Below, piece by piece: positions 37,758 to 39,134 of a stretch of 64,000 bases of DNA (positions are counted from its first letter, which is position 1; every line of letters begins with the position of its first letter). The stretch is from positions 204,162 through 268,161 of the forward strand of contig JAXDLN010000119.1 in the NCBI GenBank assembly GCA_034666565.1, given 5' to 3'. Source of the stretch: Chloroflexota bacterium (lineage in GTDB: Bacteria; Chloroflexota; Dormibacteria; CF-121). Position numbers and translations under genes: made by a program. Under the pieces are notes generated by a model. That model ran no database searches. It was given only the letters and a program-made list of their open reading frames with translations, and had not been told where the DNA came from.

Positions 37758-38629
37758 TAGCGCCTGCCTCGCGCCCAGGCGGCCGCCGTCATCCGCCGCC
37801 CACCCGGTGGTTGCACCTCATCGACAACATAGGTTCCGTCGGCGGTCGACACCGGGATGCCGTCCCCCGCCGCGCCATCGAGATGGCCGCGGATCACCTT
37901 GACCTCGACCCCGTTGAGCGCGATCCAACAACCGAGTCGCTCGCTCAACGCGCGCACGCGACGATCGATTTCCTGGGCGGACATGGTGGCCGGCTTAAGC
38001 TTGCCATCCTCCGAAGTAAGCCGCGGCGCATGGGTCGCTCCCTCCGAACGCTGGGGCATCGCCCTGATTGCCCCGCGCTGCAGATTGTCGAGGGTCTCGA
38101 CCATGAGCCCGGCACCCAGATTGGCGAGCTGGTCCTCGAGCGGACCCGCCGTCGCGTCGGGCCCGAGCGGGACGCGGGCCTGCGCCAGGATCGGACCGGT
38201 ATCGACGCCGGCATCCATCTGCATGATGGTGACGCCGGTCTCGGTATCGCCGCTGAGAATCGACCACTCAATCGGCGCCGGGCCACGGTGCCGCGGCAAC
38301 AACGAGGCGTGCACATTGAGCGTCCCCAACCGCGGCGCGTTGAGCAGGCTCGCCGGAAGGATCTGCCCGTATGCCACCACCACCATCACATCCGCGGCGA
38401 CCTGGCGGATCCGAGCCTGGGCGGCCTCGTCCCTGATCCGCGCCGGCTGAAAGACCTCGAGGCCAAGTTGCAGGGCGAGCTGCTTGGTTCCCGACGCCAG
38501 CAGCTTGAGCCCGCGCCCGGCGACCCGGTCAGGCTGCGTCACCACGAGCGTGATGTCGTGGCCGGCTTCCCGAAGCTGGTTCAGCGTCGGCTGGCCAAAG
38601 GTGGCCGTCCCGGCGAAAACGACACGCAG
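37757..38629 (-). CDS. fmt: methionyl-tRNA formyltransferase
   Basis: The track starts at an internal GTG (VTQPDRVAGRG). The frame continues upstream as LRVVFAGTATFGQPTLNQLREAGHDITLV, matching the Fmt N-terminus MRIVFAGTP. The only possible initiator is CTG, 1 nt after the def stop. Confidence 0.85.
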   Translation of the reverse strand: MRVVFAGTATFGQPTLNQLREAGHDITLVVTQPDRVAGRGLKLLASGTKQLALQLGLEVFQPARIRDEAAQARIRQVAADVMVVVAYGQILPASLLNAPRLGTLNVHASLLPRHRGPAPIEWSILSGDTETGVTIMQMDAGVDTGPILAQARVPLGPDATAGPLEDQLANLGAGLMVETLDNLQRGAIRAMPQRSEGATHAPRLTSEDGKLKPATMSAQEIDRRVRALSERLGCWIALNGVEVKVIRGHLDGAAGDGIPVSTADGTYVVDEVQPPGGRRMTAAAWARGRR

Positions 38630-38630
38630 C

Positions 38631-39134
38631 TTAGGCGCCGACGAGTTCCGCTTCCCTCTCCTCCTCCTGCGGCTCGACCTTGCGCAGGGTGTCGAGGCTG
38701 GTCAACCGATCGGTGAACAGGATGCCGTCGAGGTGGTCGATCTCGTGCTGGATCGCGCGTGCGAGGAGGGCGTCGCCCTTGACCTTCACCGGCTTGCCCT
38801 GGCGGTTGAGCCCCCGCGCCACCACCTGCATGTAGCGCTTGACTTCACCCACGTAGCCCGGCACCGAGAGGCAACCTTCCATGCCGATCTGCTCGCCCTC
38901 CCACTTGACCATCTCGGGATTGACCAGCGTGTGCAGGTTGGTATCGGTCTTGATCACGACCACCCGCAGCCCGACGCCGACCTGGGGCGCCGCCAGCCCG
39001 ACGCCGGGCGCGGCGACCATGGTGTCCACCATGTCGTCGATCAGCTGGCGGATGCTGCTGTCGACACGTGCCACCCGCTTCGCCTTCTGGCGAAGGATCG
39101 GCGCTTCCTGCGTGAGGATTGGAAGGATAGCCAT
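38631..39134 (-). CDS. def: peptide deformylase
   Basis: MAILPILTQ start, GVGLAAPQVG, EGCLSVPG and HEIDHL motifs. The track ORF adds 23 spurious codons. Confidence 0.92.
   Translation of the reverse strand: MAILPILTQEAPILRQKAKRVARVDSSIRQLIDDMVDTMVAAPGVGLAAPQVGVGLRVVVIKTDTNLHTLVNPEMVKWEGEQIGMEGCLSVPGYVGEVKRYMQVVARGLNRQGKPVKVKGDALLARAIQHEIDHLDGILFTDRLTSLDTLRKVEPQEEEREAELVGA

Follow-up and report, generated by a model that had tools for sequence, protein, structure and literature searches.

A conserved CTG codon as the probable start of fmt, one nucleotide beyond the def stop codon, in Candidatus Dormibacterota

Where does translation of fmt begin when no canonical start codon would yield the whole protein? 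The question is raised by the def–fmt junction in a 64,000-nucleotide stretch of contig JAXDLN010000119.1 from an uncultured soil bacterium (the window, to whose positions all coordinates refer), in which the genes for peptide deformylase (def) and methionyl-tRNA formyltransferase (fmt) follow one another on the minus strand. A first-pass annotation of this DNA had placed the fmt start at a CTG codon just after def, and the analysis described here, which is computational and comparative throughout, leads to the same codon: it is quite probable that fmt is a functional, full-length gene initiated at CUG (38629..38627), through restart after termination on def.

The minus-strand sequence of the junction is GTC GGC GCC TAA G CTG CGT GTC GTT TTC GCC GGG ACG. 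The def gene (38631..39134; 167 aa with an ATG start, matching NCBIfam NF001159/TIGR00079 and Pfam PF01327) ends at the TAA (38631..38633), which is followed by a single G (38630) and then by the CTG (38627..38629). This is the arrangement that the first-pass annotation had described, and the N-terminal peptide that it gave is the exact translation from the CTG, L-RVVFAGTATFGQPTLNQLREAGHDITLVVTQPDR. From there the fmt frame (37757..38629) stays open for 290 codons to a stop at 37759..37757, which overlaps the ATG of smpB (37755..37757) by 1 nt within TAATG, smpB being the next link in a chain of coupled genes. By profile, domain pair and structural similarity the product is a methionyl-tRNA formyltransferase, with formylation activity predicted. 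It scores 257.8 bits against the NCBIfam fmt profile TIGR00460 (cut-off 201.5), with residues 1–283 aligned to profile positions 1–298 of 315, and the residue encoded by the CTG pairs with profile position 1. Both Pfam domains of Fmt are present (PF00551, Formyl_trans_N, 8e-47; PF02911, Formyl_trans_C, 5.9e-12), and the alignment to E. coli Fmt (1FMT; E=2.4e-62 over residues 1–287) likewise begins at residue 1.

The choice of start codons in this frame is narrow. The upstream in-frame stop is a TGA located 25 codons before the CTG, within def, and there is not a single ATG, GTG, TTG, ATT, ATC or ATA among the 24 codons that lie between the two; indeed, the CTG is the only NTG or ATH codon from that stop to codon 16. 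No in-frame ATG, GTG or TTG is found from the upstream stop to codon 29, so none of them yields a full-length Fmt, and the earlier claim that the stretch from the def stop to the conserved N-terminal segment is free of canonical starts holds. Codon 29 is a GTG (38543..38545), and this first canonical start is the one used by the NCBI annotation, in which the window protein (P0001; 100% identical) has 262 aa. Initiation there would give an Fmt without its first 28 residues, and the segment lost is the start of the N-terminal domain (residues 4–31 of E. coli Fmt in 1FMT), including the conserved FAGT, much as the first-pass annotation had warned.

The closest proteins and loci all derive from metagenome-assembled genomes that carry the label Candidatus Dormibacterota (Dormibacteraeota or, among older records, 'Chloroflexi bacterium'), and the start region was compared in the window and 23 other species-level genomes of this clade (L001–L022 and L164), or 24 loci in all. 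First, the codon aligned with the CTG is CTG in 12 loci, TTG in eight, and GTG, CTC, AAG and CAG in one each; ATG is present in 0 of the 24. Second, none of the 12 CTG genomes has a canonical start upstream in frame, and the first one downstream lies anywhere from codon 10 to codon 41, such that the GTG at codon 29 is not conserved as the first start. Third, the choice of codon at position 1 departs from that at internal leucines of the same genes, where CTG (284) and CTC (264) are used about alike and TTG makes up 11.8%: CTG accounts for 12 of the 13 leucine codons other than TTG at position 1, as against 44.5% internally (p=0.0005), and TTG for 8 of the 21 leucine codons (p=0.0018), although both tests ignore the shared ancestry of the loci. 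Position 1 is thus held to NTG, with the third base required to be G and the first base free, which is the pattern of a start codon rather than of an internal leucine. Fourth, in a neighbor-joining tree of Fmt the CTG loci fall on at least six separate branches, the deepest included, while the TTG loci form three clades, from which it follows that the CTG state is old and stable. We infer that fmt in this clade nearly always starts with a weak codon, in the order CTG > TTG > GTG >> ATG.

The codons that initiation at the internal GTG would bypass behave as coding sequence. Among the 12 CTG genomes, codons 2–28 have 14, 9 and 26 variable sites at codon positions 1, 2 and 3, respectively, and 669 synonymous to 429 nonsynonymous pairwise differences; the corresponding numbers for codons 29–100 of the same genomes are 36, 29 and 70 variable sites, and 1650 to 1319 differences. 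Variation that falls mainly on third positions indicates that codons 2–28 are translated, and they are under purifying selection. The GTG at 38545 was therefore rejected as the start, being unconserved and preceded by codons under selection, and we regard a 262-residue Fmt as very unlikely in spite of its standing in the public record. Gene calls made elsewhere carry the same mark. JGI metagenome records print the first residue literally, and of 70 Fmt relatives in these records 41 have been called with a truncated N-terminus, which is the hallmark of an absent canonical start; among the 29 full-length calls the first residue is L in 22, V in six and M in one.

An error of sequencing or assembly, or an fmt gene in decay, might be suspected in a metagenome-assembled source, especially as a single change of the C to T, G or A would give a canonical start. 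The same CTG recurs, however, in 11 further genomes, which come from different studies, and by implication in many metagenome contigs, and the frame is both intact at 290 codons and under purifying selection. The first-pass annotation had reasoned that orthologues with ATG or GTG at the aligned position would imply an error here; ATG is found in 0 of 24 and GTG in 1 of 24, the CTG recurs in 12 independently assembled genomes, and the start codons of this set give no sign of one. An error was rejected on the strength of the 11 other genomes, and the chance that error or decay explains the CTG is negligible.

Neighboring genes and more distant genomes provide controls for this comparison. In each of the 25 related loci def starts with ATG, and smpB starts with ATG or GTG in all loci (one row being misaligned by a codon). 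For ileS, gmk and coaBC the aligned codon is ATG in both loci checked, and for gctB it is ATG in two of three, the third having an ATG one codon upstream. The aligned priA codon is ATG in 15 of 20 loci; in L009, L016 and L017 it is ACG and an ATG follows three codons later, and the N-termini of two distant loci do not align (in the window the priA start overlaps coaBC by 26–35 nt). Outside the phylum, the 58 fmt loci from other phyla that came up in the same scan have no CTG at the aligned start, but ATG in 47, GTG in three, TTG in two, and an ATG one to five codons upstream in the rest.

How might a ribosome come to start at this CTG? The gene is part of a chain of closely spaced cistrons, gmk, coaBC, priA, def, fmt and smpB, in which successive junctions measure -4, -26/-35, +10, +1 and -1 nt. 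The def–fmt spacer, 1 nt in the window, is 1, 7 or 22 nt in relatives and -2 in L020. There is no Shine-Dalgarno (SD) sequence within 3–13 nt upstream of the CTG. A purine-rich sequence, GGAGGAGGAGAGGGAAG (38651..38667, minus strand), is located within def, where it encodes EEEREA, and ends 21 nt before the CTG; SD-driven initiation of fmt was rejected in view of this distance and of the paucity of SD sites in the genome. Only about 4 of 58 window genes have an SD match of at least 5 bases at a working distance. Many first cistrons are instead preceded by TAnnnT boxes (TAGAAT, TAAAAT, TAGACT) 7–12 nt before their start codons, examples being those upstream of 47370 (ileS), 42933 (gmk), 17557, 10185, 24041 and 12823, and judged by its sequence the genome looks rich in leaderless or near-leaderless genes and poor in SD sites. 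No TAnnnT box is seen by eye in the sequence upstream of the fmt CTG, where no promoter scan was made. Taken as a whole, the anatomy of the junction (short spacers, no SD at a working distance, and a def gene that itself starts with ATG) fits translational coupling.

We therefore propose a simple, if provisional, mechanism. With no SD of its own and a position within a chain of tightly coupled cistrons, fmt would be translated by ribosomes that have finished def at the UAA, remain on the mRNA and shift one nucleotide past the stop, there to restart at the nearest NUG, with CUG being tolerated at that place. Presumably fMet-tRNAfMet would read the CUG as it does GUG and UUG, with a mismatch at the first position, and Fmt would then begin Met-Arg-Val-Val-Phe-Ala-Gly-Thr, with an expected N-terminus of (f)Met-RVVFAGTATFGQPTLNQLR. 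Initiation at CUG, decoding by fMet-tRNAfMet and dependence on termination at the def stop are all steps that we infer from the arrangement and conservation of the site.

Several points weigh against this reading or lie outside what it explains. The codon-choice tests, as mentioned, take no account of phylogenetic non-independence, and in E. coli CUG is a very poor start codon, CTG starts having been verified for just two genes of K-12 (PMC3531124). Codon 3 is ATC or ATT in many relatives, and the NCBI pipeline starts fmt at this codon (ATC) in P0011, P0052 and P0117. Where position 1 is CTC, AAG or CAG, as it is in three relatives, the start must lie elsewhere. The fmt start of the clade is almost never ATG, for which reinitiation as such offers no explanation. 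Finally, the def–fmt spacer is always 1 mod 3, and synonymous change is suppressed in the last eight def codons, neither of which is predicted by plain reinitiation.

The first group of these points invites the thought that some other non-canonical start or mode of initiation is used: an upstream AAG, initiation with Leu-tRNA, or genome-specific starts such as ATC or ATT at codon 3. The three NCBI calls at ATC are in keeping with this, and L020, L006 and L022, with no NTG at position 1, must use another codon, for which ATC, ATT or GTG at codons 3–4 are available. For relatives with ATC or ATT at codon 3 the exact start is ambiguous, but codon 3 of the window gene is GTC and no ATH codon occurs before codon 26, which leaves only the CTG, and the feature that is conserved is the NTG at position 1. 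We consider such a start unlikely for the window gene. The distant relative L020 is of some interest in its own right: the sequence in its locus (2990-3010) is GCC TAA G CGG ATC GTC, there is no CTG, and fmt may start at the ATC 5 nt past the def stop.

The oddities at the end of def are of a different kind. Across the 24 genomes the last eight sense codons of def (38634..38657, minus strand) have a third-position entropy of 0.30, as against a gene mean of 0.81 and the lowest of 21 windows, and the amino acids that they encode are not especially conserved, which points to a constraint at the nucleotide level adjoining the putative restart site. These codons could pair with fmt codons 1–5. RNAalifold, however, gives only a weak 10-pair stem at the junction (-6.5 kcal/mol) with no covarying pair, and the single-sequence fold is no better than those of shuffled sequences (z=0.57).

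Could the two proteins be made as one? In a Def–Fmt fusion a programmed +1 frameshift at the def stop, resembling that of prfB (RF2), would carry ribosomes from def into fmt, and the leucine codon would be internal. The fmt frame is indeed +1 relative to def in all 24 loci, whatever the spacer (1, 7, 22 or -2), just as the downstream frame of prfB is +1 at its stop codon, and it is open through the spacer in every locus; the suppression of synonymous variation in the last eight def codons would suit a fusion too, as would the fact that the aligned residue of E. coli Fmt is an internal Leu. The shift site itself speaks against a fusion. The P-site codons (GCC, GCG, GTC and GCT) cannot re-pair in the +1 frame, and the window site, GCC-TAA-G, has neither the slippery CUU-U of prfB nor its SD-like stimulator 3 nt upstream, the purine run ending at least 17 nt before the shift site. 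Moreover, an internal leucine predicts CTC to be as frequent as CTG, where the counts are CTG 12, TTG 8, GTG 1 and CTC 1, and the first downstream codon behaves as a start codon, unlike that of prfB. The residues that the spacer would encode (K, DKR, SDN, DAA, SAR) are not conserved, and the constant spacing modulo 3 rests on only about three indel events (p about 0.04). Elsewhere in the clade, the other genes with CTG starts, described below, differ from fmt in their frame relative to the gene before them, and one relative of the CoA-transferase gene (L100) has switched to an in-frame ATG located 3 nt beyond the stop. A frameshifted fusion is thus decidedly unlikely.

Reinitiation at the CUG gains further interest from three other genes of the window. 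The first-pass annotation had spoken of a recurring pattern, citing argS and a gctA-like CoA-transferase gene; both do have a CTG within a CTGA overlap, and lspA is a further case found here. The evidence for each consists of the upstream stop, the distance to the first canonical start and the conservation of the overlap in relatives, and it suggests that in all three genes a CTG overlapping the TGA of the gene before it is also used as a start.

The argS CTG (14446..14448, minus strand) overlaps the stop of htrA (14447..14445), and the first canonical start, GTG 14343, is 35 codons downstream. The profile alignment of ArgS begins at residue 192 (profile position 5), and GTG 14343 lies 23 codons beyond. 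In three relatives (L161–L163) the sequence is CCC CTG ATC GCG, the CTGA is kept and the peptide LIASPPRSPSSII is conserved, its segment showing four codons with only synonymous third-position changes and two amino acid replacements. One NCBI record, VBJI01000062.1, annotates this CTG as the start, from which the expected N-terminus is MIASPPRSPSSIIDQ... The lengths called for ArgS relatives otherwise scatter from 462 to 566 aa.

The lspA CTG (44495..44497, minus strand) overlaps the ileS stop (44496..44494). The first GTG is 11 codons in, and a start there would remove the first 11 residues and leave about 10 before the conserved DRITK motif, yet the profiles align from residue 3 (profile position 4). 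The CTGA is conserved in L164 and L165, of which L165 has no canonical start nearby. The product is expected to begin MTRLRSYWLL...

The CTG of the gctA-like gene (A subunit; 27641..27643, plus strand) overlaps the stop of an enoyl-CoA hydratase gene (27642..27644), and the next canonical start is 36 codons in. An alternative CTG is present at 27629, four codons upstream, where a Trp codon in the upstream gene imposes an NTG. From the CTG at the overlap the expected N-terminus is MTTKRRSLAEAI... Among 55 related gctA junctions the base before the TGA is C in 52, G in two and T in one, even though the last codon of the upstream gene varies (CGC, CAC, TAC, AAC), and in 37 of the 55 loci neither candidate position has a canonical start. 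By comparison, loci in which the upstream gene is absent or shifted have an ATG, GTG or TTG no more than three codons from the aligned position. On the lineage-wide reading given below, selection appears to keep some CTG starts weak, in that ATG almost never appears at fmt and C is found in 52 of 55 NTGA junctions at gctA; in the latter, the C is kept although the upstream gene could give rise to ATG, GTG or TTG there by synonymous change.

The hydratase gene upstream of gctA has a peculiarity of its own. A conserved motif, gcgTACTAGCATTACCGACG-GTG (26831-26867, plus strand), directly precedes it, and in relatives without the hydratase gene it stands before gctA. TTTGCA, located 17 nt upstream of CATTAC, gives it a promoter-like appearance; transcription would start at GTG 26865 or beside it, which would make this a leaderless start. 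The hydratase start called in relatives aligns with GTG 26865 and not with ATG 26880.

A census of the junctions in the window, using a codon log-odds gene caller, finds 15 canonical NTGA overlaps (6 ATG, 6 GTG and 3 TTG) and three CTGA overlaps with no canonical alternative, which with fmt amounts to about four of roughly 60 genes. Each of the four CTG starts lies -4 to +1 nt from the stop of the gene before it, and none belongs to a first cistron. Given these positions and the poverty in SD sites, termination–reinitiation is the most economical reading of the four. It is a fair possibility, somewhat short of an even chance, that the Dormibacterota have a lineage-wide relaxation of the start-codon rule at reinitiation junctions, such that several percent of genes may be CUG-started on or next to an upstream stop, persisting over deep divergence. 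Such a CUG habit would accompany an SD-poor regime of leaderless first cistrons plus reinitiation, and it might come from altered proofreading of the start codon (through IF3, the initiator tRNA or 70S reinitiation). As regards a special initiator tRNA, a scan of the window and of 60 related loci finds no tRNA-Met gene.

Some parallels to known systems can be drawn. The infC gene, encoding IF3, has an AUU start that serves autoregulation, with IF3 discriminating against AUU and so closing a feedback loop. The fmt gene resembles infC as a gene of the translation-initiation machinery with a conserved non-canonical start, but we know of no link between Fmt activity and the use of CUG. The other CTG genes here (argS, lspA and the CoA-transferase gene) are, unlike infC, not initiation factor genes, which argues against autoregulation of the infC type as the general reason.

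Closer to the present case are hda and yfjD of E. coli, whose CTG starts were spotted by conservation and confirmed by mutagenesis of the start codons (PMC3531124). Like these, fmt is a chromosomal gene for which a CTG is the only workable start; the E. coli genes are, however, two isolated cases in about 4300 and are initiated de novo, whereas the putative CTG starts here comprise about four of roughly 60 genes, are situated at upstream stops, extend throughout a candidate phylum and are known from comparison alone. Coupling at ATGA and TGATG overlaps, in which a terminating ribosome restarts on the next gene and the SD is dispensable (PMC6728339, PMC10666635; reviewed in PMC12548453), has the same geometry: the genes of a pair are co-directional and either overlap (-4 or -1 nt) or lie a few nucleotides apart (Huber et al. 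2019, 2023). It differs in its restart codon, the NTG of those papers being ATG, GTG or TTG where CTG would serve here, and CTG or CTGA starts are not mentioned in the coupling papers PMC6728339, PMC10666635 and PMC12548453. Gene VII of phage f1 and the lysis genes of MS2, fr and GA have SD-less starts that are inactive by themselves and used only by ribosomes terminating nearby (PMC10666635, PMC12548453, PMC9955659); these phage starts have canonical codons, in contrast to the chromosomal and lineage-wide case described here. Initiation at CUG and coupling by reinitiation are thus each known, but their conserved and recurrent combination in one phylum is undescribed in the literature searched, in which no work on Dormibacterota or Dormibacteraeota with start codons or leaderless mRNAs was found.

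If correct, this is a natural and conserved case of reinitiating ribosomes accepting CUG. Whether reinitiation proceeds by 30S or 70S ribosomes is debated in the coupling literature (PMC12548453), and the case bears on how start-codon specificity is enforced in either mode, a question raised by that 2025 review. A weak restart codon would also be a simple means of stepping down expression along an operon, with Def above Fmt and IleS above LspA.

There are consequences for annotation as well. Gene finders limited to ATG, GTG and TTG systematically truncate or mis-start these proteins across a candidate phylum: the deposited window Fmt lacks 28 residues, the lengths called for Fmt relatives range from 248 to 291 aa, and their scatter, like that of ArgS, depends on where a GTG or TTG happens to fall. 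The error is passed on to protein families, structure predictions and pangenome clusters built from such calls. The NCBI records for L004, L008/L165, L014/L166 and L161 already carry non-canonical starts, among them the ATC at codon 3 of fmt, the CTG of argS and, in DASYVR010000050.1, a different CTG for lspA, whereas fmt of the window was called from the internal GTG. One and the same gene is thus annotated in different ways within the clade.

A few minor features of the window may be added. An Rfam scan of the window finds only a tmRNA and a tRNA-Thr. The tmRNA (36856-37222, minus strand; RF00023, 155 bits) encodes the tag ANRQLAYAA, and it is overlapped by a permuted 'tmRNA*' called by ARAGORN at 36178-36950 on the same strand; the latter has no Rfam support, similar odd calls are made in L002 and L003, and it is probably a false positive. 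Between the tmRNA and a cluster of TPR-like genes there is an open reading frame (35198-36133, minus strand) with a low coding score.

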